Source: an uncultured Verrucomicrobiota bacterium (lineage in GTDB: Bacteria > Verrucomicrobiota > Verrucomicrobiia > Limisphaerales > UBA9464). From it: a stretch of 64,000 nt of DNA. The DNA lies in the NCBI GenBank assembly GCA_903916195.1, contig CAIWVP010000111.1:2530-66529 (forward strand), written 5' to 3'. Both the position numbers and the translations under genes were made by a program. Below, piece after piece: positions 196 through 17,863 of this stretch (position 1 is its first letter; each line of letters starts with the position of its first letter). Below the pieces are notes generated by a model. That model made no database searches, had not been told where the DNA came from, and was given only the letters and a program-made list of their open reading frames with translations.

Positions 196-201
196 TCCGC
201 A

Positions 202-1335: not shown

Positions 1336-1428
1336 GATGTCTGCGCGCCGGGTCCGCGGTCGACCGACCACGGACCGGAAGGCATTGCGGGTCCTGTGCC
1401 AAGTTCCCCGGAGGCCGGGGCCGGCCGG

Positions 1429-2460: not shown

Positions 2461-2464
2461 GGTG

Positions 2465-2827
2465 TCAGATCCCCCGTTCGTTGAGGACCTCGTTCGCCGT
2501 CCCGAGCACGAGCACCTTGGGCTGCCATCCGGCGGCCTGATGATGCTCGATCTCGGTGAAAGCCATGATGGTGAGCCGGTCGCCCGGTTTGCCGAGGTGG
2601 GCGACGGCGCCGTTGAGCTCGATGGCGCCGGTGCCGCGGGGCCCCTTGATCACGTAGGTCTCCCAACGCGCGCCGTTGGCCATGTTGCTGCACAGGATGC
2701 GTTCGTAGGGCACGAACCCGGCGCGTTCGATCAGGTCCTCGGAGATGGTGAGGCTGCCTTCGTAATCCACGCTGGCCGCGGTGACGGCGGCCCGGTGGAG
2801 CTTCGACTTCAGGACATGGACAAGCAT
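2465..2827 (-). CDS. panD: Aspartate 1-decarboxylase (pyruvoyl-dependent)
   Basis: MLVHVLKSKLHRAAVTAASVDYEGSLTI contains the conserved self-cleavage G-S site. Length is about 120 aa from the internal ATG at 2827. Confidence 0.9.
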   Translation of the reverse strand: MLVHVLKSKLHRAAVTAASVDYEGSLTISEDLIERAGFVPYERILCSNMANGARWETYVIKGPRGTGAIELNGAVAHLGKPGDRLTIMAFTEIEHHQAAGWQPKVLVLGTANEVLNERGI

Positions 2828-2975
2828 GGCGATGGCGTGGAAAAAGCCGTCCTGCGGGCGGGCGCGGCGAAAAATCCGCGGACACGGCCAGCGCCGCGTT
2901 GACCCGAAAAACGTGGCCGGATAATAAGGCAGGCGTCTCCGCGCACAACACAACGTTTCCACGCAACCTGATCCT

Positions 2976-4139
2976 ATGAGCAGAAAAATCCGTTACGGCA
3001 TGGTCGGCGGCGGTCGCGGCGCCTTCATCGGCGCGGTCCACCGCATCGCCGCGAACATCGATGGCCAGATCGAGCTCGTCGCCGGCGCCTTCTCCGCCGA
3101 CCCGGAGAAATCCAAGGCCTCCGGTGCCGACCTCTTCCTCGCGCCCGGACGCGTGTACGGCAGCTATCAGGAGCTTGTCGCCCAGGAGGCCGCGCTGCCC
3201 GCGGACCAGCGGATCGATTTCGTCGCCATCGTCACGCCGAACCACGTCCATTTCCCCGCCGCCAAGGCCGCGCTGGAAGGCGGCTTCCACGTGCTCAGCG
3301 ACAAGCCCGCGACCTTCGACCTGGCCGAGGCCAAGGAGCTCGCCGCCATCGTCAAGAAGTCCGGCCTGCTCTACGGCCTCACCCACAACTACACCGGCTA
3401 CCCGCTCATCAAGGAGGCGCGCGAGCTGGTCCACAGCGGCAAGCTCGGCAAGATCCGCAAGGTCGTGGTCGAGTACCCCCAGGGCTGGTTGGCCACCCGC
3501 ATCGAGGCCAGCGGCCAGAAGCAGGCGGCCTGGCGCACCGACCCGAAACGCAGCGGTGCCGCCGGTTGCATCGGCGACATCGGCACCCATGCCGAGAACC
3601 TCGCCGAGTACGTCACCGGCCTGCAGATCAGCGAGCTGGCCGCGGACATCACCGCCTTCGTGAAGGGCCGCAAGCTCGACGACGACGGCAACGTGCTGCT
3701 CCGTTTCAAGGGCGGCGCCAAGGGTGTCCTCCATGCCTCGCAGATCTCCGTCGGCGAGGAGAACAACCTCAGCCTGCGCGTCTACGGCGAGCTTGGCGGC
3801 CTCGAATGGCACCAGCGCGAACCGAACACGATGCTGGTGAAATGGCCCGACCAGCCGATGCAGGTCTATCGCACCGCCAACGGCTACCTGAGCGCCGCCG
3901 CCAAAGCCGCCGGCCGCACACCGCCCGCCCATCCCGAGGGCTACCTCGAGGCCTTCGCCAATATCTACAAGAACTTCGCCGCCGCCATCCGCGCCCGGAA
4001 TGAAGGCCGTAAACTGGCCAAGGACGATCCCGCGCTCGACTTCCCGAAGATCACCGACGGCGTCCGCGGCATGGCCTTCATCGAGGCCGTGGTGAAGTCC
4101 TCCAAGGCCAATTCCGCTTGGACGAAACTGGAGGCCTGA
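2976..4139 (+). CDS. Gfo/Idh/MocA family NAD(P)-dependent oxidoreductase
   Basis: N-terminal Rossmann motif [13 protein letters not shown]. It also has EKP-like SDKP and the C-terminal alpha/beta domain typical of this family. Confidence 0.85.
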
Positions 4140-4314
4140 ACGGCGTCCCGTGGCCGCGGACGCAAGTCCGCGGCCGGCCCTCGGGGCAACGATCGAGCAG
4201 GGGTCCGTAGGCCGCAGGTCGTTGCTCGCATCTCAACTTCCTCCGTCCAACCCGCTCCTCCCGAGCGAAAATCTCGACGCGCCTGGTCCCGGCGCGTATC
4301 GCAACGCGGTGTCG

Positions 4315-5181
4315 ATGCTCCTGCTGTTGCTCGGCCGGGTGGTCCTGAGCGTCTCGGCCAGCGGGTTGCAGAAGCGGCTCACCCAGCTCCACGTCCCGGG
4401 CCCGGTGGTATGGGCCGGCACGCATGCCTGGATGCTGCCGCTCGCTCTCGTTGCGGTGGTCGCATCGCCCTCCCTCACCTGCGGTCCCGGCTTCTGGCGG
4501 GATGCCGCCCTGGCCGGCGTCATCGATGCCATGGGGAATCTTGCGACCGTCTCCGTGTTGCGGACGACCGATCTGTCGGTCTTCGGTCCGTTGAACGGAT
4601 TCCGGCCGGTCCTGGCGCTCGGGTTCGCGGCGCTCTTCCTCGGTGAACAGGTATCCCCGCTCGGCGGCGCCGGCGTGGCGGTCACCGTGGCCGGCGCGAT
4701 GTTCTTGTTGCGCGACAACCCCGACGGCGATGCCCGATGGACCCCCGCGGTCTGGCGGACGCTCGGGTGGCGGTTGACGGGTCTGTCGCTCTCCGTGCTC
4801 GCCTCGGTCTTCCTCAAGCGGGCGGCGCTCGCTGGACTGGTCTCGCTCACCTTGGCGATGTGGATCGGTTGCGGATTGCCGGTGCTCGCGCTCGCTGCCT
4901 GGCGGGCGCGGAGCGCGTCATCGGCCCGGACGCATGAGCCGCCCGCGGCGGTCGCCCGCGGATTCCTGCCGCTGCACGCGACCCTCTTCTTCGTGATGCT
5001 GTGGGCCTCGGTGGAGATCTTCCGCACCACTTTGCTCGCCTACTCGTTCGCGTTTTTCCAGCTCGGCATGGTCCTGCAGGTGCTGCTCGGCGCGCTGTGG
5101 TTCGGGGAACCGAGGCTCGGCCCGCGTCTGGCCTGTTGCGGTCTGATGGGGATCGGGACGCTCCTGATCACGCTCGGGTAG
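4315..5181 (+). CDS. EamA/DMT-superfamily-like polytopic membrane protein
   Basis: About 10 hydrophobic helices in two similar halves. The start is uncertain: the ORF opens at 4150, and I chose the ATG at 4315 just before the first helix. Confidence 0.55.
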   Translation: MLLLLLGRVVLSVSASGLQKRLTQLHVPGPVVWAGTHAWMLPLALVAVVASPSLTCGPGFWRDAALAGVIDAMGNLATVSVLRTTDLSVFGPLNGFRPVLALGFAALFLGEQVSPLGGAGVAVTVAGAMFLLRDNPDGDARWTPAVWRTLGWRLTGLSLSVLASVFLKRAALAGLVSLTLAMWIGCGLPVLALAAWRARSASSARTHEPPAAVARGFLPLHATLFFVMLWASVEIFRTTLLAYSFAFFQLGMVLQVLLGALWFGEPRLGPRLACCGLMGIGTLLITLG

Positions 5182-5195
5182 CGGGACCGGTGGCT

Positions 5196-5333
5196 GAGGT
5201 AGCGCGGAGTTGAACTCCGCTGTATCGCGGGTTTGCAACCCGCAGGCGCTGCGACGGGTAGGCGGTCGGGACTTGCCGACGCCCTGCCGAGTGCAACTCG
5301 GCGAAACGGCAGGTTTCGAACCTGCGCCACGAG
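5196..5333. repeat. 138-bp nested-palindrome repeat, copy A (four 17-nt hairpins plus terminal inverted GTAGCGC/GCGCCAC)
   Basis: Hairpins are gcggagt-tga-actccgc, gcgggtt-tgc-aacccgc, gccgagt-gca-actcggc and gcaggtt-tcg-aacctgc. It matches the reverse complement of 14641-14778 with 20 mismatches in 138 nt (manual alignment). Confidence 0.8.
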
Positions 5334-5714
5334 CGGCCGCCACATCCGGCCGCACCCTGTTGTGCATGGTTGGACCGTCCATGCGGCGCAACTCCACTTC
5401 TTGCAGCCTCTCCATCCGCCAAGAACATCGCGGAGCGATGTCAGCCATTAGCCGGGAGTCGAGGAGCGGAGCGACGACACCCCCGGATACCGTGGGCCGG
5501 TGCCTGCTGCTTCCAGGTTTGTTTACGGTTTTCGAGGGCGAAGTGTTACCGAATCTGCACAAATAAAGTGAAATTAAGCGGTTGAAAACCTGGAACTATG
5601 GTGTGCCAGTATTGGAATGGTAAAAGAAGAAATAGGATTCGATTAGGTTTTCTTGGGGAAGCACAGCGGATTCGATAAAATTAGACGACCAAAAAACGAG
5701 TATACAACTGTGTT

Positions 5715-8129
5715 ATGAATGAAAAACTGACATTACATATTGCAGAGCGCTACCTCAATGGTGAAAACATAAATCTCGAGTTGTTTGGGCGCGTCGAGTT
5801 ACGTGCGCTCGAGCTTTTGGCGAGTCGAGTCTCGGATTTTTCATTTTTGAAAGAGATTGACGGGCGCCATGCTGAAATTCTTTCAACGGTATGTAATGAA
5901 CTAATTCTGGATGGCTTATCTACTATAGACGATGAATCTGCTCGGATACTGGGAGAAAAGCATCTTGGGAGTCTATCCCTGCGATGTTTGACAGTTTTGT
6001 CAAAACCCGCAGCAAAGAGCCTCTGCCTTCATAAAGGGTTAATCAACGGCATGAAATCTGGGGCATTTGTAACCCAAATGCGGACGAAGCCTGAAATTCA
6101 AGGTAACAAATTCGGTAGTCAACAAAGCCAGCCTGAGGCTTCTCAAAGTGTTGGCAAAATTCGTGCGGAAAACGCTGAAGCCAACGCCGCAGACTCTGCA
6201 TCAGACCCTGTTCCGACTGTGTCTGCCACCAGCTTCCGTGAAGTGGCAAAAGAAAAAAAAGATTCACCAGCCAACACTATTAGATTAATCGTGACTCACC
6301 AGGACGTCATTTTTGAAATATACTCTGCGTACTTAAAACAAAAGACTCCTTGGTGGGATAAGGTCACCACCACAAGCACTTTGCATATCGACAAGGATTG
6401 GCTAGATCGAGGAGGATACGGGGTTTTACAATGCGTTAGGGTTCAAAAACTGATTGAGACACGAGTTTGTGAAACGTGTTGCATCCCGTACAGGAATGAA
6501 GAAGTCCCGGACTCATGCGTACGACTTGATCCGTGGGAAATCGAAGCCTTTCCGGCAGTGGACGCCAAGAAAGGCCCGACGAGCAATAAACTTTCACCCG
6601 TTGACAGCAGGCGAGTACATCCATGTTATGTGTGCGATGCTAGTGGAGAAATCACATGCCGAAGTTGCAATGGACGTTGCGAGGTTACTTGTGGTAATTG
6701 CTCAGGAACAGGCCAAGAACGAAAGACACGTGGAATTCCAGAAATTATTTTATGCGGATCATGCAACGGTTGTGGTTATAAAGATGGTCATGGTAAATGC
6801 TACTCTTGCAATGGCTCAGGGAGAAAGCAACAAACTAGATCCGAAGAATACTTCGTGCCATGTGTGTCATGCCGCAGCACGGGTCTTGTAACATGTTCTA
6901 CGTGTCGGGGAACCGGTAAAGAACAGTGCTACAAATGCGAGGGGCGAGAGAAACTTCTTGAATTTGTTCAATATACACAATCAGTTCAGTCCGTTATTTC
7001 AGAACCTTTGATTGTAGGTTCCGCAACCGCACTCAAACGCCTGCACTGGGGTGCCTTGGAATCTTTTGTTAATTTTGTTAATGTGGCAGATTCTTTTCAG
7101 CAAATCATCAATGATTTGACATCACGTTTTGATGAAGAAGTCTGCCTAAAGAGCGTTGTTTCAATAAACAGATTTTCTGATCCTAACTTTGAAGAATTAA
7201 CTAATGATGAGGAGACCACAACTACATTGGCTCATTTGCATCAGAAGACGACGGCACCCGAGCGGCATGCGACACACGAGTGTAAAGTATTGTCACAAGA
7301 AATGGGTTACTTGTTTCAAGTAACGCAGGGCAAAGAAAAATTGGCAGCTATAGGAACTAAGAACCCAGCGAGAATTCTCACGCTTGGAGGGACTGAGATA
7401 GAAGCAAAACTGGAAAAACAGTCTCGCTTTCTTAGGTTTTTGGTAATGGCTGGCTGTGATAAAATGATAGCAGCAACATCCGCGACTGCTGACGGGCCGA
7501 CACCATGTGGGCCTATAATGAAGTGGTTTAATCCCATTCTGCAGCTATTTAAGCCGCTTTTCGGTATTGTATTCGTGCTCGCGAGCATCGGTCGAAATGA
7601 GGTCGGCGATGCAGTGTTTATCCTAACACTATTAGGATTCTATAACTTCCAAAAATTAGCTGCTATCAAAAAGTGGGGGGTAATATTACCGAATGGATTA
7701 CACATACCTGGGAAGCAAAAGAACAGTAATCCAATCTCTTATTCTAACCGTCGAAGGCACTATGTTTACTTTAAATCTTTTCTTTCCTCTCAAGAAAAGA
7801 ACGCAGTAAACGCCCTTATAGAGATCCTGATTTCCAATCGCCCGGAAGGTCACTGGACCAAAGAGATTCCGAAGGAGAATCACTACTCGCGTTTAACAAA
7901 AATTCCTTTCAGGAACTTCTTTTTTGGAATTGGGGGGGCTCGAAGCATTTTGTATCGGGAATGGGCTCTTGCAGGTCCTTTTTCGAACGCTGAGAAGGCA
8001 AGGCAATGGAGGCCTTGGTCTGCTGTAATGACGGACGATAATCTCGAAAAAGGGTTTAGCAAACTCACCTTTGTGACTAAGAGGCCAGCAGGCGAGCATA
8101 CCTGCACTTATATTCTCACAAGTGTTTAA
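5715..8129 (+). CDS. Orphan 804-aa multidomain protein: leucine-rich-like repeats, eight DnaJ-type CxxC zinc-finger motifs, hydrophobic helical hairpin
   Basis: It is the only long ORF in an AT-rich stretch (35% and 50% GC in the two 60-nt lines I hand-counted). CxxC motifs CYVC, CRSC, CGNC, CGSC, CYSC, CVSC, CSTC and CYKC lie at nt 6624-6944. The N-terminus has about 24-aa repeats (LDGLSTIDDESARILGEKHLGSLSLRCLTVLSKPAAKSL). Hydrophobic segments are FKPLFGIVFVLASIG and AVFILTLLGFYNF. Confidence 0.8.
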   Translation: MNEKLTLHIAERYLNGENINLELFGRVELRALELLASRVSDFSFLKEIDGRHAEILSTVCNELILDGLSTIDDESARILGEKHLGSLSLRCLTVLSKPAAKSLCLHKGLINGMKSGAFVTQMRTKPEIQGNKFGSQQSQPEASQSVGKIRAENAEANAADSASDPVPTVSATSFREVAKEKKDSPANTIRLIVTHQDVIFEIYSAYLKQKTPWWDKVTTTSTLHIDKDWLDRGGYGVLQCVRVQKLIETRVCETCCIPYRNEEVPDSCVRLDPWEIEAFPAVDAKKGPTSNKLSPVDSRRVHPCYVCDASGEITCRSCNGRCEVTCGNCSGTGQERKTRGIPEIILCGSCNGCGYKDGHGKCYSCNGSGRKQQTRSEEYFVPCVSCRSTGLVTCSTCRGTGKEQCYKCEGREKLLEFVQYTQSVQSVISEPLIVGSATALKRLHWGALESFVNFVNVADSFQQIINDLTSRFDEEVCLKSVVSINRFSDPNFEELTNDEETTTTLAHLHQKTTAPERHATHECKVLSQEMGYLFQVTQGKEKLAAIGTKNPARILTLGGTEIEAKLEKQSRFLRFLVMAGCDKMIAATSATADGPTPCGPIMKWFNPILQLFKPLFGIVFVLASIGRNEVGDAVFILTLLGFYNFQKLAAIKKWGVILPNGLHIPGKQKNSNPISYSNRRRHYVYFKSFLSSQEKNAVNALIEILISNRPEGHWTKEIPKENHYSRLTKIPFRNFFFGIGGARSILYREWALAGPFSNAEKARQWRPWSAVMTDDNLEKGFSKLTFVTKRPAGEHTCTYILTSV

Positions 8130-8284
8130 CGAGGTTGTTCCGGGTGGTCCAAGTGAACTGATTGGCGATTTGCCACCGGGTGGTGGCGGTTGTTCGCGAT
8201 TCTGTTTGGCAGACACCCGGTAACACCGTCGTTCATAATTGGACGAGGGTGGTTCACTGCTTCAGCTTTCAAATCACCCGATTG

Positions 8285-8875
8285 ATGGACTGCGACACCA
8301 CAGACCCGGATCTTCTGAAATCGTTGAAGGGCATCGAGAACACGGACGCGTGGGTTCGATTCGAACGCCTTTATCGTCCACCGATTCTCACGCATTGTCG
8401 CGGAGTGGGGTTGACGCTCGATCAGGCGGAGGAGGTGGTCCAGGAGTGTTTCATCCAGTGTTTTCGCTATCTTCCCTCGTTTGAATACTCGGTGGCGGTG
8501 GGACGATTTCGAGCGTGGTTGAATCTCACGGTCAACCAACGGATTGCTGAACACTTCCGAGATTCGGTCCGCTCGGATCGACTAAAAACCGCCTACGCTG
8601 CATTGCTTCGTGATTTAAGCGGGACCTACCCTGGCTCCAATGCAAATCCTTCCATCTTCGAGTACGAGCTGGTTTCGATGGCGTTCCGCAAAACCCAGGC
8701 GGAAGTGGAGCCAAAGGGCTGGCAGGTCTTCGAGGCACACGTGATGCACGGACTCAAATCCAACGAGGTTGCACGGCAGTTTGGAGTGTCCGCTATCCTG
8801 GTTCGGGTGACCACCCATCGTATTCGGAAGATTTTACAACGAAACTGGAAGCTGCTCCAAGAAGGGCCGTTCTGA
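8285..8875 (+). CDS. ECF-type sigma-70 family RNA polymerase sigma factor
   Basis: Region 2-like sequence is FERLYRPPILTHCRGVGLTLDQAEEVVQECFIQCFRYLPSF...FRAWLNLTVNQRIAEHFR. Region 4 HTH is LKSNEVARQFGVSAILVRVTTHRIRKIL. The start was moved to the ATG at 8285, giving about 196 aa. Confidence 0.85.
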   Translation: MDCDTTDPDLLKSLKGIENTDAWVRFERLYRPPILTHCRGVGLTLDQAEEVVQECFIQCFRYLPSFEYSVAVGRFRAWLNLTVNQRIAEHFRDSVRSDRLKTAYAALLRDLSGTYPGSNANPSIFEYELVSMAFRKTQAEVEPKGWQVFEAHVMHGLKSNEVARQFGVSAILVRVTTHRIRKILQRNWKLLQEGPF

Positions 8876-8876
8876 A

Positions 8877-10415
8877 ATGAGCCTGCTCTCCGATTTTCCG
8901 GGCTCTTTGGTCGAGCACGCGGGACACATCGTCAGGGTCCGCAGTTTGTCGAGTCGGCAGAACCGGGAGGTGTATCTGGTTGAAGACTCGCAAGCCCGGA
9001 TGAGGGTCTTCAAGATCCGACGAAACTTGGAGCCTGGAACCATCGCGGCCTTTCTGGATGTTCGGACGCGTATCTCGAAAGGCCCGCCCAACCTGCACTT
9101 GTGCCCGATTTTGGGCTTTGGAAACGATGTTTCGACGGTGTGGGAAGAACTTCAACCCGCAGACGACGCTGAAAATGCGGCTGCCGCCTTCGATGAGTAT
9201 TCCCCGCTGCATCCTCAGCGATGCAATTCCTTGTCAAAGGACCTGTCGTTGGAGTTAGCCGTTGAAGTGGGGTCTGCGGTCTGCGGTGCACTCGTGGAAC
9301 TTGCTGGCTTGGGGCTGACTCACGGCGACGTCAAACGTACGAATGTCCTCCGAGTCAACGGTCGGTGGGTGCTTGGGGATTTCGACACCGTCAGTTCCAG
9401 CTCGGTTGAGAGTCCTCCAACCGCATCCACCGAGGGATACGTACCGCCCGGCGGCGATGACGGTCGCGGACGCGACTGCTACGCCCTCGGCAAGTTGATG
9501 TATGAACTATGGACCGGATGCGATCGGATGGAATATCCAACGATTCCATCCTGGCTGATGAAGTCTCGCTGGAGCCGGGCGGATCGCCTTTTGAACGACA
9601 AGATTTGTCGCCTTTGCTCTCCGTTGGCGACCCAGCGTCTTCGCAGTTTGGAGTCGATCGGCAGAGTCCTGGATGCACTCAAAAACCGAAACAAGGGTGT
9701 CCTGCATCAAGCGGAAAAATTGGTCGGAAGCAGGCGGCCGTGGTGGGTGGTCCCGCTGGCCGTTGCTGGCATGGTGGGGATTACATCCGTTGCTTGGTTG
9801 TATGCCACCGCCACGCGGAAAGAAATGTGGGACGGCCAGCCGGTTGTTTTCTCTCCTTATCGACCCATCAATAGGGTCAACCACGGGTACGGCCGCTGGG
9901 CCGGCAATGGTATCCGTAACGTGTGGATGTTGTTCAACACGCATGCGACGCTTTCCCAACCTCTTCAGCAGGATGAGGTGCTGGAATTCTCATTGAAAAA
10001 GGAGGTTTGGAGGGGGCACATTGGTCTATATCTCACCACAACCCCGTTTTATAAGATACGCGACAAGTGGTTTAGTCACCGTGAGAACTTCGGCGAGATC
10101 GATCACCTGCTGTTTTTCCATGTGGATGGCGATTCGTTGGTGGCACCGACGATCTTTAAGGATGGCAAGGCTGTTGAGTTTCCTTCTTCCAATTGGAGGG
10201 TCGCGTTGACCACCAACACCCTGGCAACCTACACGATCCGACTCAAGGTCATGCCGACTGCGTATGAATGGACCGTATCGGCGGGTGGTGATCCTCTCGC
10301 GGAGGGACACTATCTCAGAGATCCGAACAAACCCGAGTACCTGAACGTGTACGTGTTCGACAACACGGTTTGCTATCTCAGCGACTTGAAGGTGGTCAAG
10401 CAACCCTCTAACTAG
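8877..10415 (+). CDS. Membrane-spanning Hanks-type Ser/Thr protein kinase-like protein with extracytoplasmic beta-rich domain
   Basis: Catalytic loop HGDVKRTNV is at 9321-9344. It also has a DFD in place of DFG (LGDFD), an APE-like GYVPPG and subdomain IX DCYALGKLMYELWTG. I see no glycine-rich loop. One TM helix is WWVVPLAVAGMVGITSVAWLYA, followed by about 190 C-terminal aa. The ATG lies 1 nt after the sigma stop. Confidence 0.8.
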   Translation: MSLLSDFPGSLVEHAGHIVRVRSLSSRQNREVYLVEDSQARMRVFKIRRNLEPGTIAAFLDVRTRISKGPPNLHLCPILGFGNDVSTVWEELQPADDAENAAAAFDEYSPLHPQRCNSLSKDLSLELAVEVGSAVCGALVELAGLGLTHGDVKRTNVLRVNGRWVLGDFDTVSSSSVESPPTASTEGYVPPGGDDGRGRDCYALGKLMYELWTGCDRMEYPTIPSWLMKSRWSRADRLLNDKICRLCSPLATQRLRSLESIGRVLDALKNRNKGVLHQAEKLVGSRRPWWVVPLAVAGMVGITSVAWLYATATRKEMWDGQPVVFSPYRPINRVNHGYGRWAGNGIRNVWMLFNTHATLSQPLQQDEVLEFSLKKEVWRGHIGLYLTTTPFYKIRDKWFSHRENFGEIDHLLFFHVDGDSLVAPTIFKDGKAVEFPSSNWRVALTTNTLATYTIRLKVMPTAYEWTVSAGGDPLAEGHYLRDPNKPEYLNVYVFDNTVCYLSDLKVVKQPSN

Positions 10416-10420
10416 TCAGG

Positions 10421-10451
10421 GTGATGATGGCGGTTTTGAGTCCGTCATCAC
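10421..10451 (+). terminator. Possible stem-loop at the right edge of the low-GC island
   Basis: gtgatgatgg / ccgtcatcac forms a 10-bp stem with 1 mismatch and an 11-nt loop, 6 nt after the kinase stop. No U-tract follows, so it is weak as an intrinsic terminator. Confidence 0.25.
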
Positions 10452-10616
10452 GGCAACGGAATCGGTGGATGGCGGAGACGCGGGATAGGGCACCGGACGG
10501 ATGACAGCGACCTGAGGCCACCCTCGTGCCTGCCTACTGATCCCTACTCGCGAGCGCCGCAAAACGACTCCTGGTGTATCGTCTCCTGGGACGATGGCCG
10601 GACCCGCGGGCCGTGG

Positions 10617-11531
10617 TCACGGGTGGTCGCCGCGGTACTTCAACTCGCCGGCTTCGATCGGGAACGGGAGCCAGTTCTGCCTCGGCGGGACCGGGCAGGT
10701 CGCGAAACCAGTGAAGGCGCAGGGCGGATTGTAGGCGTGGTTGAAATCGATGACGACGCGGCTGTCCGCGCCCGGCAGGGCGACGTGGAGGAAGCGACCG
10801 GCGCCGTAGGTCGTCTCGCCCGCGGTCGCGTCGCGGAAGAGGATGAAGAGGTCGTGAGTCTCCTCGTCGGAGAGCGCTTCGAGGCGATGTTCCTGTCCGC
10901 CGAGCGTGAACACCACCGAACCGGGCGAACGCTCTTGGTTCACCGCGCCGGTGACGTCGTCGATGGCGAGGGTGCGCCCTGGGGCGGAGGCCTCGAAGCG
11001 GCCTTCGATGCGCCAGCGCGGGTCGTGGTCGTAGTAGTCCAATCCGCGGAAGTTCAGCCGGGTCGGCGCCTTCGGATCGCGCACGCGGAGCCCGAGACGT
11101 TCGCCGCGCTGGATCACGGTGATGCTCAGGTCGTCGATGCGGAGGACCGAGGGCTCCGCGTTGCCCGCATCGGACCGGAGCGCGGCCTCCGAGACCTCGG
11201 CGCCGTCGATGGTGGCGACGACGCCGCGGGCCGCCTTGAACCGGGCGAGCATGCCGGTCCGCGTGACGATGCCCGCGACGGGCGGAGCGCTGCCCGGCGG
11301 GAGCGCGATGGGGCTGGCGTCGGCGGTGCCGATGGTGTTCGGGCCTTCGCGCAGCCAATGTAGGCCTGCGAGCGTGGTCCAACCGTTCGTGCCCGCGACG
11401 GAGACGAGCCGGTTGCTCCGCCAAGCGATCCAAGGCGCCGGGCCGATGGGAGCGGGATCGGGCTTGTGCGCGCAGCCGACGACGGCAGCGACCACGGCCA
11501 GGATCAACAAGAGGAAGGGAGCGTTTCGCAT
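10617..11531 (-). CDS. DUF1684 domain-containing lipoprotein
   Basis: Lipobox LLILAVVAAVVGC. The C-terminus DFNHAYNPPCAFTGFATCPVPPRQNWLPFPIEAGELKY is characteristic of DUF1684. Only the 3' 915 nt of the 680-aa track ORF are used. Confidence 0.8.
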   Translation of the reverse strand: MRNAPFLLLILAVVAAVVGCAHKPDPAPIGPAPWIAWRSNRLVSVAGTNGWTTLAGLHWLREGPNTIGTADASPIALPPGSAPPVAGIVTRTGMLARFKAARGVVATIDGAEVSEAALRSDAGNAEPSVLRIDDLSITVIQRGERLGLRVRDPKAPTRLNFRGLDYYDHDPRWRIEGRFEASAPGRTLAIDDVTGAVNQERSPGSVVFTLGGQEHRLEALSDEETHDLFILFRDATAGETTYGAGRFLHVALPGADSRVVIDFNHAYNPPCAFTGFATCPVPPRQNWLPFPIEAGELKYRGDHP

Positions 11532-11671
11532 CGGAGACTTGGATCCACGCCGGGCGACGGAGGACAAGCCCGGCCCGGCGGACGAAACAAAGCCCGCCGA
11601 AGGCCGAGGAGCAAGCGGTCGGTTTGAAAACGGCGGAGTCACGAGCGCGAGCGGCGTGCGACGACCGACGT

Positions 11672-13090
11672 TCACAGCCGTCCCGGTCCACGCGCCCGGG
11701 TGGGCGGGGTGCCGGTGAGCGAATCGCCGAGATCGGCGCGCATCGACTCGGCGAACTTCATCAAACGGGCGACGATGTCCGGATGTGCGGCCGCCACGTC
11801 GGTCTGTTCGCCGATGTCCGAGGCGTGGTCGAAGAGCTGGGGGCGTTCCAGCTTCACCTGATGATACCGCACCGGGATTCCGCCCGTCGCCTTCGGCTGG
11901 TTGCCGAGCGTCCGGTAACCGTGCGAGAGCATCAGTTTCCATCGGCCGTCGGTCACTCCCTGCAGCTCGTTGTTGGCGTAGTACCAAGCGTAGTTCCGCG
12001 GTTTGGAGCGGGCCTTGGACGACTTGCCGGAGATGTCGCGCCAGACGTCGGTGCCGTCGATCTTGACGGCGGGAAGTTGGGCGCCGATGCGGGCGGCGAT
12101 GGTGGGGAAGAGATCGAGGGTCATCATCATCGAGGCGCAATCCGAGCCGGCGTGGATCTTGCCGGGCCAGCGCATGAGGCAGGGCACGCGGGTGCCGCCT
12201 TCCCAGCTGGTGCCTTTGCCCTCGCGCAGCGGACCCGCGCTGCCGGCGTGGTCGCCGTAGCTGAGCCACGGGCCGTTGTCGCTGGTGAAGACCACCCAGG
12301 TGTCCTGGTCGATGCCGGTGCGCCGGAGCGCGTCGAGCACCTGGCCGACCGACCAATCGATCTCCTGCACCACGTCGCCGTAGAGGCCGGCACCGGACCG
12401 GCCGGCGAACTTGGAGCTCACGTGGAGCGGGACGTGCGGCATGTTGTGCGCGAGATAGAAGAAGAACGGGCGGTCCTTGTTCCGCTCGATGAAGGAGACG
12501 GCCCGCTCGGTGTAGCGGGTGGTCAACTGCTCCTGGTCGGCGTGGGTCATCGCCGGTCCCACGATGCGGTCGCCGTCGAACATCGGCAGGTCGGGATACC
12601 CTTTCGGCGATTCCGGATGGAGCGGCCACATGTCGTTGGAGTAGGGCAGGCCGAGCCATTCGTCGAAGCCCTGGGCGGTGGGCAGCCAGCGCTTCGCGTC
12701 ACCGAGATGCCATTTGCCGGCCATGCCGGTGGCGTAGCCCTTCTGCTTCACCAGTTCCGCGAGCGTGGTCTCCGAGGGGTCGAGACCGGTCTTGGATCCG
12801 GGACCGAGCGCGCCGTGGATGCCGACGCGGCTGTGGTAGCAACCGGTGAGCAACGCCGCGCGCGAGGCGGAGCAGACGGCGGAGGAGACGTGGAAGTTGG
12901 TGAAGCGCCGGCCTTCGCGGGCCATGCGGTCGAGGTTCGGCGTGGCGACCTTCGCGCCGAAGGGTCCGATGTCCGCGTAGCCCATGTCGTCGACGAAGAT
13001 GATGATCACGTTCGGCGGTCGGGCCGCGGCGCTCCAAGGAGCGACGAGCGCGACGACCAACAGCGACAAGGCGAGCAGCAGGTTCTTCAT
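11672..13090 (-). CDS. Arylsulfatase A family sulfatase (formylglycine-dependent)
   Basis: Signal peptide MKNLLLALSLLVVALVA. Motifs are FVDDMGYADIG and the CSASRAALLTG formylglycine motif (C-x-A/P-x-R). Confidence 0.9.
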   Translation of the reverse strand: MKNLLLALSLLVVALVAPWSAAARPPNVIIIFVDDMGYADIGPFGAKVATPNLDRMAREGRRFTNFHVSSAVCSASRAALLTGCYHSRVGIHGALGPGSKTGLDPSETTLAELVKQKGYATGMAGKWHLGDAKRWLPTAQGFDEWLGLPYSNDMWPLHPESPKGYPDLPMFDGDRIVGPAMTHADQEQLTTRYTERAVSFIERNKDRPFFFYLAHNMPHVPLHVSSKFAGRSGAGLYGDVVQEIDWSVGQVLDALRRTGIDQDTWVVFTSDNGPWLSYGDHAGSAGPLREGKGTSWEGGTRVPCLMRWPGKIHAGSDCASMMMTLDLFPTIAARIGAQLPAVKIDGTDVWRDISGKSSKARSKPRNYAWYYANNELQGVTDGRWKLMLSHGYRTLGNQPKATGGIPVRYHQVKLERPQLFDHASDIGEQTDVAAAHPDIVARLMKFAESMRADLGDSLTGTPPTRARGPGRL

Positions 13091-13103
13091 CGGAAGGGGA
13101 TGG

Positions 13104-14567
13104 TCAGCGGGCGGGAGTCTGGCGGAAGGCGGGGAGATGGCCGGCGGTGCGGACGAGCAACGTGTCGCCGAGCGGCGCGGGGCTCGCTTGGGCGACCTCG
13201 CCGAGGTCGTTCCGGGCGAGCACCTCGAAGGTGTCGCCGGCCTTGACCACGGTGACCACGCCGCGCTGCGAGGTGACGTAGATGCGTCCGTCGGCGGCGA
13301 CGAGGCTCGCGTAGTGATCACCGACGGCGCCGAGACGTTCTTCCTGGTAGACGGGTTTGCCCGTCAGCGGATCGAGGCAGGTCAGCATGCCGCCGTTCTT
13401 CACCATGTAGAACCGGCCGCGATAATAGAGCGGCGAGCCGACGTACGGCAGGCCCTTCTTGAAGCGCCAGAGGACGCCGGCGTCGGAAAGCTCGCCCTTG
13501 GCATCCGGCTTCACCGCGAAGGCCTGGTTCTCCACGCGGGCGAAGATGTCCGCCATCGATTCCCATTCGGTCCGTTCGATGAAGCCGCTGCGGTTGCCGT
13601 CCATGTGCTTGAAGCGTTGCTTCATCGGACCGGGCGGGAGCTCGTCGTAGCTGAACTTGCCGTCCTTGTCCGCGTCGTGCGCGGCGAGGAATTCGTCGAA
13701 GGGCGGCATGGTGATGTGTTCGGCGGTGTGGTCCCCGCCGGTCGTCCAGCTGGCGGTGAAGAGCATGCCGTCGCCCACCACGGGCGAGGTGCAGGTGATG
13801 CGGGCCAACCCGCTCACGCGCCAACGCTCGGATCCGGTGCGCGGATCGAGCCCCTTGAGCCAGACCGTCCCGGGCACGACCAGGTCGGAGGCGCCGTCGT
13901 GGTCCCAGACGATCGGCGTGCCGAAACCGCGGCGCATCTCCGGCCGCTCGACCCGCCAGGCGACGGCGCCGGTGCGGCGGTCGAGCGCGACGAGGTGCGA
14001 GCCGCCGTCCTGGTCGATGAGCTGGATCACGTTGCCACCGGCCAGCACGGGCGAGGAGCTCGCGCCGTATTCGGTCTGCGTCAGCGCCATCGGCCGTCGC
14101 CAGAGTTCTTTTCCATCGATGTCGTAGGCCAGGACGCCGACCGACCCGAAGTGGACGTAGACCCGTTCTCCGTCGGTGACCGGGGTGGCGGAGGCGGGGT
14201 TGCCGAGGGATTGGTGGACCTCCTCGACCTTCTGCGGGACGACCTCGCGACGCCAGATCTCGCGGCCGGTACCGCGGTCGATCGCGAGCGTGAGCAGTTT
14301 TCCTTCGGCGAAGGCGGTGAGGAAGATGCGTGTGCCCCGGACGATGGGAGAGGAGTTGCCGGCGGGAACTTCGATGCGCCACGCGACATTCGTGGAGGGA
14401 CCGAAGACCACGGGCGGCCGGGCATCGGTCGCTCCGAGACCGAGGCCGCCCGGACCACGGAACTGCGGCCAATCGCCGTTGCCATCGCCGGCCACCGCGA
14501 GCGGGAGCGACGTGAGCGCCAAGCCGGCGAGGAAGATCGCGACGGCGCGGGGAAGGCGGGGGTTCAC
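13104..14567 (-). CDS. PQQ-like beta-propeller repeat protein with two inserted EF-hand calcium-binding loops
   Basis: The WPQFRGPGG start is typical of PQQ-like propeller proteins. EF-hand loops are DADKDGKFSYDEL and MDGNRSGFIERTEW. The start is uncertain: I chose the GTG at 14567 because the upstream ATG lies inside repeat copy B. Confidence 0.7.
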   Translation of the reverse strand: MNPRLPRAVAIFLAGLALTSLPLAVAGDGNGDWPQFRGPGGLGLGATDARPPVVFGPSTNVAWRIEVPAGNSSPIVRGTRIFLTAFAEGKLLTLAIDRGTGREIWRREVVPQKVEEVHQSLGNPASATPVTDGERVYVHFGSVGVLAYDIDGKELWRRPMALTQTEYGASSSPVLAGGNVIQLIDQDGGSHLVALDRRTGAVAWRVERPEMRRGFGTPIVWDHDGASDLVVPGTVWLKGLDPRTGSERWRVSGLARITCTSPVVGDGMLFTASWTTGGDHTAEHITMPPFDEFLAAHDADKDGKFSYDELPPGPMKQRFKHMDGNRSGFIERTEWESMADIFARVENQAFAVKPDAKGELSDAGVLWRFKKGLPYVGSPLYYRGRFYMVKNGGMLTCLDPLTGKPVYQEERLGAVGDHYASLVAADGRIYVTSQRGVVTVVKAGDTFEVLARNDLGEVAQASPAPLGDTLLVRTAGHLPAFRQTPAR

Positions 14568-14640
14568 TGCGTGATGAAGGCATCGCCCGCGGCCCGCGGC
14601 AAGCGGCCAGGCCGGCCCGTGCGATCGGGAGGGGCGGGCA

Positions 14641-14778
14641 CTCGTAGCGCAGGTTTGCAACCTGCTGTATCGCCGAGTTGAACTCGGCAGGGCGTCGGCA
14701 AGGCCCGACCGCTGACCTGCCGCGACGCCTGCGGATTCCAGATCCGCGATACGGCAGAGTTCAACTCTGCGCTACCTC
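14641..14778. repeat. 138-bp nested-palindrome repeat, copy B (inverted relative to copy A)
   Basis: Its reverse complement aligns colinearly with 5196-5333. Base changes in the stems of hairpins 1 and 2 are compensatory. Confidence 0.8.
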
Positions 14779-14906
14779 ATCTGCCGTGTCCGCCTCTTCC
14801 GATCACATCCGCGCCCAGGCCGGCCCGTGCGATGGGGAGCGGCGGCACGGGGGGCGGCGGACGCTCCGCGCTTCTCGGCGGGGCCCGGATCCGGCAGCTT
14901 CGGCGC

Positions 14907-16046
14907 ATGAAGCCGTTCCTCCTCGTTCCCCTTCTGCTCGTGTCGGTCGCGATGCCGTCGATCCACGCGGCGGAGGCTCCGGGCTACACCGTGCCTGTGG
15001 TCGATCTCGCGGCGGAGACCGGACGTCAGGGGGTCGTCGACCGTGAGCCGGGACGATACCTCGGGCATCCCACGACGGTGCTGCTCGAGGACGGCAAGAC
15101 CCTTCTCTGCGTCTATCCGCGCGGTCACGGCAAGGGCGCGATCCAGCTCAAGCGCAGCACGGACGCCGGCCTGACCTGGAGCCCGCGGTTGCCCGTGCCG
15201 GAGAACTGGGCCACCTCGCTTGAGACGCCGACGATCCATCGGGTGGTGGACGCCACCGGCAAGAAGCGGCTCATCGTGTGGTCCGGGATGTATCCGGCGA
15301 GGCTGGCGATCTCGGAGGACGACGGCGCGACCTGGTCGCCGCTGAAGCCCGCCGGGGATTGGGGCGGGATCGTTGTGATGGGCAGCGTCGAAGCGGTGCG
15401 CGGCAAGCCGGGGTCCTATCTCGCGTGGTTCCACGACGACGGCCGGTACATCGCTGCCGATGCGAAGCCGGAGAAGCCGGTCGTGTTCCGGCTCTATCAG
15501 GTCGGATCGACCGACGGTGGGCTGACCTGGGGCCGGCCGCGCGAGCTGTTCGCGTCGGCGGACGTCCATCTCTGCGAGCCCGGTGTCGTCCGTTCGCCCG
15601 ATGGCCGGCAGATCGCCCTGTTGTTGCGGGAGAATTCCCGGCGGAAGAATTCCCACGTCATCTTCTCCGACGACGAGGGCGCGACCTGGACCGCTCCGCG
15701 CGAACTGCCCGGCGCGCTCACCGGCGACCGCCACGTCGCGAAGTATTCGCCGGACGGCCGCCTGTTCATCTCGTTCCGCGACACCACGCGGGTCTCGAAG
15801 ACGCAGGGCGACTGGGTCGGCTGGGTCGGGCGGTACGAGGACATCGTCGCCGGCCGCGAAGGCGCCTATCGCGTGCGCCTGATGGACAACCATCACGCGT
15901 GGGATTGCGCGTATCCCGGAGTGGAGCTGCTGCGCGACGGCACCTTCGTGACGACGACCTACGGGCATTGGACGGAAGGCGAGCCGCCCTATGTGGTGAG
16001 CGTCCGGTTCCGGTTGTCCGAGCTGGATGCGAAGCTCGGCAAGTGA
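14907..16046 (+). CDS. BNR/Asp-box repeat glycosidase (exo-alpha-sialidase-like)
   Basis: Signal peptide MKPFLLVPLLLVSVAMPSIHA. Four Asp-boxes are present: STDAGLTW, SEDDGATW, STDGGLTW and SDDEGATW. Confidence 0.75.
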   Translation: MKPFLLVPLLLVSVAMPSIHAAEAPGYTVPVVDLAAETGRQGVVDREPGRYLGHPTTVLLEDGKTLLCVYPRGHGKGAIQLKRSTDAGLTWSPRLPVPENWATSLETPTIHRVVDATGKKRLIVWSGMYPARLAISEDDGATWSPLKPAGDWGGIVVMGSVEAVRGKPGSYLAWFHDDGRYIAADAKPEKPVVFRLYQVGSTDGGLTWGRPRELFASADVHLCEPGVVRSPDGRQIALLLRENSRRKNSHVIFSDDEGATWTAPRELPGALTGDRHVAKYSPDGRLFISFRDTTRVSKTQGDWVGWVGRYEDIVAGREGAYRVRLMDNHHAWDCAYPGVELLRDGTFVTTTYGHWTEGEPPYVVSVRFRLSELDAKLGK

Positions 16047-16088
16047 TCGAGGCTTCCCGTCCGCGGCCTCCGGCGACATCCTTCGGCG

Positions 16089-17858
16089 ATGAATCTCCCT
16101 AGCCTCGCCCGGTCGTCCGCCTTGCTATGCTTGGCGATCGCATCCGCTGTGGCGCCGGCCGCATTGGCGGAAGGCACCATCCGACCGTCCTCCGAAGGGC
16201 GGATCGGTTTCATCGCCGGATCGGCGACCAACGCGGAGACCTGGGGATTCAAGCCGTCGCGTTGGGGTCGGTACGACCTCGAGGCGGCGGTCTCCGGCGC
16301 GGCGAAAGGCGCGGAACTCGTCATCGAGATCGCGGGGCAGACCTTCGGCGTGGTGTTGCCGGAAGGGTCCGAAAAGCGCCACACCACGGTCGTCCCGGTC
16401 TCCCGGTTCTACCTGCCGAAATCCGACCCGTGCCAAGTGAAGGCCGGACCGAAGGCCGGTTCGGCCGGGGAGTTCACGTTGCACGGCATCAATCTCGTGC
16501 CCGCGCCGGAAGGCGATCCGGTCGTTCAGCAGGCGTCGGGTGAGATCCTGCTGCGCTCGGGTGAGGCGACGACCCACAGCGTGATGATGCGCTACGAGCC
16601 GGCGACCAACAAAAACTGCCTCGGCTACTGGGTGACGCCGTCCGATTGGGCGCATTGGGACTTCACGGTCACGAAACCGGGCACCTTCGACGTCGAGGTC
16701 TGGCAGGGTTGCGGCAACGGCAACGGCGGCAGCGACGTCGTCGTCGAGGTCGGCGGTGAGAAGCTGCCGTTCGTCGTCGAGGAGACCGGGCATTTCCAGA
16801 ACTTCGTCCCGCGCCGCATCGGCCGGGTGACGTTGGCGGCCGCCGGCAAGCAGACCTTGGCCATCAAGCCGCAGCGCAAGCAGGCCGCGGCGGTGATGGA
16901 TATCCGCAAGGTACGGCTCGTCCCCGCGACGACCGCGGCGGTGCCGGCTCCGGCGGCGCGCGCGTTCGTGGCGGCGAAACGCGTGGTGTTCCTCGGCGAC
17001 AGCATCACCTACGCGGGCGAATGGGTGGAGTTCGTCGAGACCTGGCTGCGGCTGAAGTTCCCCGAAGCCGATGTGGAGATCATCGACCTCGGCCTGCCGA
17101 GCGAGACCGTCTCGGGCTTGTCCGAGCCCGGCCATGCGGGCGGATCGTTCCCGCGGCCCGGCGTGCACGAGCGTCTCGGCCGCGTGCTGGAGAAGGCGAA
17201 GCCCGACCTCTTGGTGGTCTGCTACGGCATGAACGACGGCATCTACTATCCGTATGGCGACGACCGGGCGAAGGCGTTCCAGGACGGCATCCGCAAGCTC
17301 CGGGAGACCGCTGCCCATCAGGGCGTGCGCGTGGTCCATGTCACGCCGCCTTCGTTCGACCCGGTGCCGTTGGGCAAGAACACCCTGCCCGCGGGCCGCG
17401 ACGCGTATCCGCAGCCGTTCGAAGGCTACAACGGCGTGCTCGGCCGCTACGCCGAGTGGCTGCTCGCGCAGCGGAAGAGCGGCTGGGAAGTCGTGGACGC
17501 GCACGGGCCGATGGACCGCTTCCTGGAGGAGCGCCGCCGCACCGAGCCGAAGTTCCTGCTCGCCGGCGACGGCGTCCACGCCAACACCCAGGGCCATTGG
17601 CTCATCGCCCGTGAATTCTTGCGCCACCTCGGTGCGGACGAGGGGATCGTCGCCGCGGATTCGCCCGCCGGGCTGCTCCAGTCGGATTCGCGCGCCGCGC
17701 AGGTCCTGAAGCTCGTGCAGCAGCGTCAGCGCACCCAAAAGGACACGTGGCTCACGCACGTCGGGCACGTCCGCCCCGGCATGGGCAAGGGCAAGACGAT
17801 GGACGAGGCCGCCCGTGACGCTGCGGAGGTCGCGGCGAAGCTGCGCGCCTCGCGGTAG
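16089..17858 (+). CDS. SGNH/GDSL hydrolase with two N-terminal carbohydrate-binding-like beta-sandwich domains
   Basis: It has a signal peptide. SGNH blocks are VVFLGDSITYAG, CYGMNDG and GDGVHAN. The N-terminal half is beta-rich and ends in MDIRKVRLVP. Confidence 0.75.
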   Translation: MNLPSLARSSALLCLAIASAVAPAALAEGTIRPSSEGRIGFIAGSATNAETWGFKPSRWGRYDLEAAVSGAAKGAELVIEIAGQTFGVVLPEGSEKRHTTVVPVSRFYLPKSDPCQVKAGPKAGSAGEFTLHGINLVPAPEGDPVVQQASGEILLRSGEATTHSVMMRYEPATNKNCLGYWVTPSDWAHWDFTVTKPGTFDVEVWQGCGNGNGGSDVVVEVGGEKLPFVVEETGHFQNFVPRRIGRVTLAAAGKQTLAIKPQRKQAAAVMDIRKVRLVPATTAAVPAPAARAFVAAKRVVFLGDSITYAGEWVEFVETWLRLKFPEADVEIIDLGLPSETVSGLSEPGHAGGSFPRPGVHERLGRVLEKAKPDLLVVCYGMNDGIYYPYGDDRAKAFQDGIRKLRETAAHQGVRVVHVTPPSFDPVPLGKNTLPAGRDAYPQPFEGYNGVLGRYAEWLLAQRKSGWEVVDAHGPMDRFLEERRRTEPKFLLAGDGVHANTQGHWLIAREFLRHLGADEGIVAADSPAGLLQSDSRAAQVLKLVQQRQRTQKDTWLTHVGHVRPGMGKGKTMDEAARDAAEVAAKLRASR

Positions 17859-17863
17859 CTGTC

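Follow-up and report, generated by a model that had tools for sequence, protein, structure and literature searches.

A compact ECF sigma factor and its atypical membrane kinase partner in Verrucomicrobiota, beside a variable cargo gene

Introduction

How is an extracytoplasmic function (ECF) sigma factor controlled when no anti-sigma factor gene accompanies it, its region 2.2 keeps the usual acidic charge, and its one conserved neighbour encodes a membrane protein with a kinase fold? The question is raised by a gene pair in a 64,000-nucleotide stretch of DNA, hereafter the window, from an uncultured Verrucomicrobiota bacterium (GenBank assembly GCA_903916195.1, contig CAIWVP010000111.1, positions 2,530 to 66,529, forward strand). 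To our knowledge, Ser/Thr-kinase (STK) control of a sigma factor is understood in group ECF43 only, where phosphorylation supplies the negative charge that region 2.2 is missing. The family described here is a compact test case for kinase-linked sigma factors that keep this charge: a 196-aa sigma factor with a 512-aa partner whose kinase core is conserved and whose nucleotide-clamping loop is replaced, and, in one genome, several sensor paralogues that appear to feed a single sigma factor. Our answer, which we hold tentatively and at a little less than even confidence, is that the partner may be a ligand-gated kinase that would activate the sigma factor by phosphorylating it outside region 2.2.

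The gene pair and its relatives

8285–8875, forward strand: ECF sigma factor gene, 196 aa (family profiles, alignment of 22 sequences, profile alignment to SigW and sigma-E)
8877–10415, forward strand: membrane kinase-like sensor gene, 512 aa (open reading frame (ORF) list and sequence; 19 full-length homologues; AlphaFold2 (AF2) model with a mean predicted local distance difference test score (pLDDT) of 80)

The sigma gene runs from an ATG at 8285 to a TGA at 8873–8875 and the kinase gene from an ATG at 8877 to a TAG at 10413–10415, so that a single A (8876) parts the sigma stop from the kinase start, as an earlier note made from the sequence alone had read it. The mechanical ORF list opens the sigma ORF at an upstream TTG (8162); we take the ATG at 8285 as the true start because the homologues (30 relatives) are ∼196 aa long and all open with M-x-C-D-T-T-D-P. 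We searched 5.8 billion protein clusters for relatives of both proteins. The kinase-like protein has 19 full-length relatives only, at 92–37% identity, and the sigma factor has 30, each at least 51% identical. The full-length relatives lie in metagenome-assembled genomes (MAGs) of Verrucomicrobiota only (L018–L028; scan with one genome per species).

The two genes are adjacent or overlapping in at least 20 independent loci, at identities down to 37–50%, and the 196-aa sigma factor stands directly upstream of the kinase wherever both ends are visible (L001, L003/4, L005, L007/8, L009, L010/11, L012, L014–17, L018, L019, L021 and L023–26). In the close clade the two genes are 0–1 nt apart, and in the distant clade they overlap by 14 nt; a tight junction recurs in every full-length locus recovered, and translational coupling is therefore a trait of the family, not a coincidence of the window. 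The kinase is also the sole neighbour conserved across loci, in keeping with the earlier statement that no anti-sigma gene is present, and Pfam finds no anti-sigma domain (zf-HC2, RskA or similar) in the 20 members of the kinase family even at E ≤ 10, a level at which their matches are to kinase-type families plus scattered noise only. Comparison with L003, an independent assembly of a near-identical strain, gave ratios of nonsynonymous to synonymous divergence (dN/dS) of 0.14 for the sigma gene, 0.21 for the kinase domain and 0.22 for the transmembrane (TM) segment plus ectodomain (for the kinase gene, window 8877–10415 against L003 8215–9753, ∼0.2 throughout), which indicates purifying selection on all three.

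Another 68 loci match the kinase domain alone, at 28–40% identity, nearly all of them in Verrucomicrobia (Roseibacillus, Opitutaceae, Limisphaerales and others). In 49 of the 68 loci of this broad group there is a sigma factor 24–31% identical to that of the window, about 40 of the 49 being on the same strand and directly upstream of the kinase. The broad-group kinases are canonical (G[RGQ]G[SA]YG, RA(V/I)K, HRDxKPSN) and mostly 650–1,900 aa long, and the sigma factors retain an acidic region 2.2 (e.g. EAEDVVQE, DAEDVAQD). Judged from these comparisons, the window pair is a compact, divergent offshoot of a widespread Verrucomicrobial module of sigma factor plus canonical kinase.

There are exceptions to the sigma-then-kinase order: L002 (5285–11545; the same as L022) holds four tandem kinase paralogues, and L006 (4540–7595) two or three, with no adjacent sigma gene in either. 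Both arrays adjoin a 1344–1361-aa HZS_alpha/HEAT protein; at L002 the array is divergently oriented to this 1361-aa HZS_alpha/HEAT/PD40 protein. At L027, from the same MAG as L002, a family sigma gene lies just downstream of a fifth kinase gene, and among the loci recovered from this MAG the family sigma factor is seen there only. The four L002 paralogues have kinase domains that are 83–97% identical and ectodomains that are just 52–72% identical, a pattern that would be expected of a diversifying ligand-binding sensor in front of a shared cytoplasmic output.

The sigma factor

The protein scores above the cut-offs of TIGR02937 (51.4 bits against 42.9) and Pfam Sigma70_r2 (30.3 against 24), which bears out its earlier assignment as an ECF sigma factor, and slightly below that of Sigma70_r4_2 (21.5 against 25.7). 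With sigma2 and sigma4 only, ∼200 aa and a score above the family threshold, it has the make-up of an ECF (group 4) sigma factor, and its profile aligns to SigW, sigma-E and CnrH. The NCBIfam sigma subfamilies of the Planctomycetes–Verrucomicrobia–Chlamydiae (PVC) bacteria, TIGR02989 and TIGR02984, were considered and rejected, both scoring far under their cut-offs; the nearest, TIGR02989 (Rhodopirellula/Verrucomicrobium), reaches 37.9 against 124.55, and the broad-group sigma factors likewise fall short of it.

Region 2.2 of the window sigma factor is LTLDQAEEVVQE, D46-Q-A-E-E-V-V-Q-E54; the earlier note had read the same DQAEEVVQE and called it acidic. The family consensus over the 22 aligned members is D46-Q47-[A/S]-E49-E50-V-x-Q53-[E/D]54, and in the profile alignment Q-A-E-E falls on E-A-E-D of Bacillus subtilis SigW (EAEDIAQE) and D-V-P-D of Escherichia coli sigma-E (DVPDVVQE). 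ECF43 sigma factors have no acidic DxxD in region 2.2; their consensus is Q-T-T-A, with the second Thr as the phosphosite (PMC13147305, PMC8999054). The acidic region 2.2 and the Glu at the phospho-Thr position rule out ECF43 membership of the window sigma factor, and with Glu at that position the charge switch of the EcfP/PknT pair cannot apply. The earlier note had taken ECF43 as its frame of reference and had inferred, in part from the acidic patch, that the mechanism may differ. Neither step survives, as the sigma factor belongs to a Verrucomicrobia-specific lineage whose relatives combine canonical kinases with an acidic region 2.2; since the patch is common in the broad group, it is the normal state of the lineage and no sign of an altered mechanism.

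Where else might a kinase act? Six Ser/Thr columns of the sigma factor are at least 80% conserved (T5, T6, T44, S65, S123 and S169), the last three being Ser/Thr in just 82–86% of members. T5/T6 was rejected as a family-specific phosphosite, because T6-D7 aligns with the N-terminal L-T-D of sigma-E and with T-R-x-S-L of the broad group; on this alignment, the conservation of T6 is a general ECF feature. At T44, a helix-capping position, relatives have S/T/D/N. Four cysteines, C3, C38, C55 and C59 (H37 is listed beside them), are 95–100% conserved in the 22-member family and missing from the broad group. SigW likewise has a Cys at the C38 position, and C55 and C59 substitute for Ala/Ala on helix 2.2 of SigW and sigma-E. 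To judge by their positions, the four may be core-packing residues; they could also form a redox or metal site and so add a second regulatory layer, as in SigK.

8207–8249, forward strand: conserved block upstream of the sigma gene, TGGCAGACACCCGGTAACACCGTCGTTCATAATTGGACGAGGG, conserved in the close clade; candidate promoter or 5' stem-loop

This block lies ∼40–80 nt before the sigma start and is kept in close-clade loci where the surrounding upstream sequence has diverged. It contains an imperfect hairpin (TCGTTCA-TAAT-TGGACGA) and occurs once in the window. A sigma-70-like match, CAGACA-N18-CATAAT, is specific to the window. From its sequence, the block has two candidate readings, an ECF-type autoregulated promoter and an RNA structure. 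In the distant clade the sigma gene is instead preceded by a promoter of housekeeping type, CTTGCCGATCGG...TTAACC, and an autoregulated motif of the ECF type is not evident there.

That promoter bears on an account in which the sigma factor is not a substrate at all: the kinase would be active on other envelope or cytoplasmic targets, and the sigma factor would merely be co-expressed with it and set by the amount made, through autoregulation or another regulator. The kinase arrays of L002 and L006, which stand beside the HZS_alpha/HEAT protein with no sigma gene nearby, fit this account, as does the lack of a convincing phospho-acceptor in the sigma factor. Yet gene order and the overlapping junction are near-invariant over large evolutionary distances and the broad group shares the order, both of which suggest that the two proteins work together directly, and ECF sigma factors without post-translational control are the exception (PMC8999054). 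We regard this account as improbable.

The kinase-like domain

8919–9725, forward strand: cytoplasmic Hanks-type kinase domain, residues ∼15–283 (invariant columns, PknB/PknE profile match, Foldseek)

The kinase motifs were read from an alignment of 20 sequences with identities down to 37%. Invariant in it are the beta3 lysine K46 (R-V-F-K), the catalytic loop H149-G-D151-x-K153-x-x-N156, the Mg-binding D168 within D-[F/Y/L]-D170, the P+1 loop S184-T185-E-G-Y, the alpha-F aspartate D200 and the subdomain XI arginine R254; the region from alpha-G to alpha-I (W232...LCSP...R254) is strongly conserved. Several hallmarks have changed around these residues: HRD has become HGD (making the protein non-RD, after the Arg-Asp pair), DFG has become DFD (D168-F-D170 in the window), APE has become PPG (S184-T185-E-G-Y...P-P-G in the window), and the alpha-C Glu is not conserved. 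The glycine-rich GxGxxG is replaced by S25-x-R27-x-x-R30, each residue at least 90% conserved, with LSSRQNREVYLV in the window protein. The E-V that follows the loop is kept, as in GRGSYGEVWLA of the relatives, and the broad group has G[RGQ]G[SA]YG at the loop position. The catalytic D, K and N (HGDVKRTN), the DFD and the missing glycine loop had all been recognised from the window protein, with LSSRQNREVYLV placed in the position of the loop; the alignment extends SxRxxR to the whole family. The alignment to Hanks kinases that had been proposed as a check finds K46, D151, K153, N156 and D168 retained.

By sequence, a pseudokinase is a kinase-fold protein that lacks one or more of three residues, the beta3 Lys, the HRD Asp and the DFG Asp. 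All three (K46, D151, D168) are invariant across the 20 sequences, and the replaced loop is itself conserved, so the pseudokinase suggested by the earlier note gives way to an atypical kinase, as far as the usual sequence criterion can tell. The conservation of S-x-R-x-x-R likewise indicates a loop that was probably re-wired rather than one in decay.

Profile and structure comparisons place the domain among protein kinases. Pfam Pkinase matches the window protein weakly and over the C-lobe only (15.9 bits against a cut-off of 31.7), and all 20 members match it at a relaxed threshold (best E 3.9e-9). In a profile search of PDB sequences the nearest are Mycobacterium tuberculosis PknB and PknE (E 3e-8 to 1e-7), HGDVKRTN and the DFG region aligning to HRDVKPAN and DFG of PknB. 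The AF2 model has a normal N-lobe (beta1–beta5, alpha-C), a helical C-lobe, one TM helix and an all-beta C-terminal domain, and Foldseek aligns ∼270–290 columns of it with many kinases, PknI and Stk1 among them (probability 1.0, E ∼1e-10, target-normalised TM-score 0.6–0.68).

The altered loop also invites the thought that the Hanks fold does other chemistry, such as AMPylation or phosphorylation of small molecules or glycans, with control of the sigma factor being indirect. Some kinase-fold enzymes with altered nucleotide-binding loops do carry out chemistry of this kind. The conserved Ser/Arg/Arg loop in place of glycines and the second acidic residue in DFD would suit such a change; 9 of the 20 members have weak matches to the APH phosphotransferase family (best E 6.4e-5), and the best NCBIfam matches of the protein are the kinase domains of the LanKC and LanL lanthionine synthetases. 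However, the APH and LanKC matches are weak and cover the shared catalytic core only, K153 and the P+1 S-T-E-G-Y are signatures of protein Ser/Thr kinases, and protein kinases are nearest in both sequence and fold. Other chemistry thus seems very improbable to us. An anti-phage defence system was also considered and rejected: PADLOC gives weak kinase-core matches only (PD-T4-6, 1e-5; mad6, 5e-4) and none for the sigma factor or for the 804-aa cargo protein described below.

The membrane anchor and the ectodomain

9741–9803, forward strand: single TM helix, residues 289–309 (helix in the AF2 model; hydrophobic stretch PWWVVPLAVAGMVGITSVAWLYA)
9813–10400, forward strand: extracytoplasmic sensor domain, residues 313–508 (concanavalin-like beta-sandwich in AF2)

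The one TM helix in the AF2 model stands where the earlier note had put a single TM helix, between the kinase-fold part and the ectodomain. Modelled alone, the ectodomain reaches a pLDDT of 93.4 and a predicted TM-score (pTM) of 0.90, and is confidently predicted to be a concanavalin-like beta-sandwich. Its best Foldseek matches in the PDB are legume lectins, pro-concanavalin A, the galectin-like YesU, GH16 glucanases, CBM66 and VIP36, at E ∼1e-5 to 1e-4, query-normalised TM-scores of 0.43–0.57 and 7–14% identity, which is a likeness at the level of fold only. Its invariant residues include N335, N354, K375, W378-R-G-H381, R402, H415-x-D417, W440 and D495-x-T497.

Across the 20 members, the ectodomain has no Pfam match even at E ≤ 10. 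A HMMER profile search of 1.84 billion representatives returned 13 proteins, 11 of them from its own family or fragments of it and the other 2 being weak matches to repeat proteins; by this measure the ectodomain appears to be without sequence relatives outside its family. The earlier guess of a concanavalin-like or DUF1080 fold is thus half right: AF2 and Foldseek agree with the concanavalin-like fold, and DUF1080 (the 3-keto-disaccharide hydrolase family, PF06439) was rejected, as no member matches it at E ≤ 10. Alignment with hhalign of the ectodomain profile to a neighbouring DUF1080-like protein gave a probability of 0.2%. A LamG identity was rejected too, Pfam being empty and profile comparisons with neighbouring LamG, DUF1080-like and 465-aa proteins negative.

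Activation or sequestration

In the mechanism that we tentatively favour, the concanavalin-like ectodomain would bind an envelope or environmental ligand, plausibly a glycan, and binding would alter the state of the Hanks-type domain on the cytoplasmic side, which would be a catalytically competent, non-canonical kinase (non-RD, with S-x-R-x-x-R for the glycine loop) that phosphorylates the co-translated sigma factor outside region 2.2, and phosphorylation would switch on sigma-dependent transcription. Known systems offer precedents for parts of this scheme. STK-linked ECF groups are typically without anti-sigma factors (PMC7826278), and those outside ECF43, which retain a DAED-like motif, are expected to rely on different sites (PMC8999054). 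In EcfK, which keeps one acidic residue in the motif, a phosphosite in the linker between sigma2 and sigma4 is also needed (PMC13147305).

We favour phospho-activation because the catalytic residues are invariant (K46, D151, K153, N156, D168, Thr185 and D200 across the 20 sequences), because the replaced loop is conserved, not decayed, and because one MAG yields four or five sensor paralogues and one family sigma factor. Many sensors converging on one output fits phospho-activation better than sequestration.

Several points weigh on the other side. The family has no glycine loop and no conserved alpha-C Glu, and it has HGD, DFD and PPG, so that several features which efficient phosphotransfer normally requires have been removed; the Arg side chains of the loop could block ATP binding as easily as aid it. 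With a canonical acidic region 2.2, the sigma factor should be capable of binding core RNA polymerase, and a sigma factor that looks intrinsically active from its sequence should call for a negative regulator, not an activator. None of T5, T6, T44, S65, S123 and S169 is a compelling family-specific phospho-acceptor, and no phosphatase gene and no target promoter were identified. Finally, we infer rather than observe the ligand and its binding, the catalytic activity of the kinase, its binding of the sigma factor, the sigma factor as its substrate, the direction of regulation and the regulon.

These points lead to the chief competing account, in which the Hanks-fold protein is itself an anti-sigma factor: it would hold an intrinsically active sigma factor at the membrane until a ligand on the lectin-like domain releases it, possibly via nucleotide binding, autophosphorylation or proteolysis, and phosphotransfer to the sigma factor would not be required. 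Like a classical single-pass anti-sigma factor, the protein has its N-terminal domain in the cytoplasm, a single TM helix and a C-terminal sensor outside. Genes that lie 1 nt apart or overlap by 14 nt also imply that the two products are made in stoichiometric amounts, as from sigma/anti-sigma operons. The acidic core-binding patch is kept, so the sigma factor needs restraint; the family has lost the glycine loop, the Arg of RD, the Gly of DFG and the Glu of APE, all kept in its relatives, which would fit a lesser reliance on catalysis, and the strongly conserved alpha-G to alpha-I region could be a docking surface. Against this, the invariance of the K/D/D residues plus N156 and K153 is unexpected for a pure scaffold at 37% identity. 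The MAG with four or five kinase paralogues and one family sigma factor is also awkward, because the other holders would buffer release, and no zf-HC2, RskA or similar domain is detected. On balance we consider an anti-sigma role somewhat unlikely and retain the ligand-gated kinase as our preferred, if tentative, account. Whether the outcome is phosphorylation or sequestration would decide whether a kinase fold can serve as an anti-sigma factor.

The low-GC island and its cargo slot

5489–5625, forward strand: leader element of ∼100–125 bp directly upstream of the cargo gene, core GGTTTGTTTACGGTTTTCGAGGGCGAAGTGTTAC.GAA.C..C.CAAATAAAGTGAAAT
5715–8129, forward strand: variable cargo gene for an 804-aa protein with DnaJ-type CxxCxGxG Cys repeats and C-terminal hydrophobic segments, 42–47% GC
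8172–8187, forward strand: weak-terminator-like hairpin GCCACC-GGGT-GGTGGC after the cargo gene (read from the sequence)
Leader copies in other loci: L003 5698–5806; L009 335–432; L010 6231–6326; L019 481–606 and 2838–2933

The pair sits in a sharp island of low guanine-plus-cytosine (GC) content, at ∼5500–10430, which the earlier note had overlooked. The island has 42–59% GC in a genome of 68–70% and contains the 804-aa ORF (42–47%), the sigma–kinase pair (53–59%) and nothing else. Close-clade pairs have 53–56% GC whatever the background of the host and are preceded by genes of still lower GC; distant-clade pairs are near their surroundings (58–65% against flanks of 60–70%). An assembly chimera was rejected as the cause of the drop, because L003, assembled independently, has the same junctions. 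A phage, plasmid or tRNA-integrated element was rejected as well: the island has no integrase, no flanking direct repeats and no match in phage or plasmid collections, and there is no tRNA in the window.

L003 matches the window at 95–98% identity in the flanks and at 94.6% from the sigma gene into the right flank. The two differ at 5504–8190 only, where genes for a lipoprotein and a TM2-domain protein in L003 replace the 804-aa ORF. Synonymous divergence between them is 0.08–0.10 in the flanking genes, 0.12 in the sigma gene, 0.24 in the kinase domain and 0.33 in the ectodomain, a rise that suggests a probable allelic exchange of the sensor gene on top of the cargo swap.

The 804-aa protein has 5 homologues in the 5.8 billion clusters and no match in Pfam, NCBIfam or PADLOC. 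Its relatives of ∼620 aa are solitary low-GC genes in contigs of ∼60% GC (L102, L103), one of them beside a resolvase gene; a resolvase gene also stands beside the leader/cargo copy of L010/L011. Across loci, the cargo products are secreted or membrane proteins: LamG-repeat adhesin-like proteins, TM2-domain proteins, lipoproteins and the Cys-rich 804-aa protein.

The leader is 78–82% identical to copies before unrelated cargo genes in L003, L009 and L010/L011/L100, with two copies in L019. The window holds no additional copy, and a metagenome scan found one true copy (a duplicate locus) and four chance matches. From its sequence and placement, the leader could be a shared promoter or 5' untranslated region, or a recombination flank for cassette exchange. 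A known RNA was rejected, for want of a significant Rfam match, and so was the sigma factor's own promoter motif, since the leader copies share no bipartite motif with the block that precedes the sigma gene. The hairpin at 8172–8187 is conserved in L009; the terminator scan did not call it.

The host flanks were delimited by the 95–98% identity to L003. To the left (window 1–5200) are HicA/HicB toxin–antitoxin, aspartate decarboxylase, GFO/IDH/MocA oxidoreductase and EamA transporter genes, and to the right (10500–18000) genes for DUF1684, a sulfatase, a PQQ_2/EF-hand beta-propeller, a BNR_2 sialidase-like protein and a GDSL lipase. Such a gene set is that of a PVC-type bacterium that degrades polysaccharides.

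For the ligand-gated kinase and its sigma factor, these surroundings would mean that the pair came by horizontal transfer and adjoins a slot that exchanges surface and membrane cargo genes, which may be targets of the sigma factor. A bolder combination, in which the kinase fold has been re-purposed as a ligand-gated anti-sigma factor and the pair is also the portable regulator of a leader-marked slot for swapping surface genes, strikes us as distinctly unlikely. The linkage is a hint that such regulators move between Verrucomicrobial genomes along with exchangeable surface-protein genes.

Comparison with known systems

Relative to the literature that we found, four features of the family appear to be new: an S-x-R-x-x-R loop throughout the family, in a kinase whose catalytic residues are otherwise retained; a predicted concanavalin-like sensor domain without sequence relatives outside the family, by which the module offers a new lectin-like sensor; a sigma factor with four conserved cysteines; and a putative link to a cargo slot that undergoes horizontal exchange and has a conserved leader.

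The ECF43 pairs, EcfP–PknT of Vibrio parahaemolyticus and EcfK–PknS of Xanthomonas citri, resemble the window pair in setting an ECF sigma factor beside a single-pass Hanks-type kinase with a variable outer sensor domain, in having no anti-sigma gene, and in that the kinase is presumed to be the direct regulator. The gene neighbourhood of ECF43, an adjacent Hanks-type Ser/Thr kinase and no anti-sigma factor, is accordingly present in the window. In contrast, the window sigma factor has Q-A-E-E, with Glu at the phospho-Thr position, its kinase is non-RD and without GxGxxG, and its family is found in Verrucomicrobiota only, with an ectodomain that has no relatives outside it.

Groups ECF59, ECF61, ECF62, ECF217 and ECF283 (Casas-Pastor et al. 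2021), here compared by description only, share other features: like the window pair they are STK-paired, have no anti-sigma factor and have an acidic region 2.2. They have a DAED-like motif, and their mechanism has been flagged as likely to differ from that of ECF43 (PMC8999054). Most of these groups come from Planctomycetes, which are related to Verrucomicrobiota within the PVC bacteria; the literature found places them in Planctomycetes and Actinobacteria, not in Verrucomicrobia, and we found no literature report of a family-wide loss of the glycine loop in their kinases.

Anti-sigma factors of the RseA/RsiW type share with the window protein the membrane topology, a gene immediately downstream of the sigma gene and an overlapping junction. 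Unlike them, the window protein has no anti-sigma domain, its cytoplasmic part being a complete kinase fold with the catalytic residues intact.

The broad Verrucomicrobial modules (L029–L096) have the same order of sigma gene and membrane kinase gene, usually within 0–130 nt, the same acidity of region 2.2, and a YALGK.(L/M)YE motif shared between the kinase domains. Whereas their long kinases combine canonical motifs with different large outer regions, the window family is compact (500–530 aa), with re-wired motifs and a sensor domain of its own, and its sigma factor has the C-D-T-T-D-P N-terminus and the four conserved cysteines, neither of which is found in the broad group. The module would work like the known ECF–STK modules and is not a member of ECF43.

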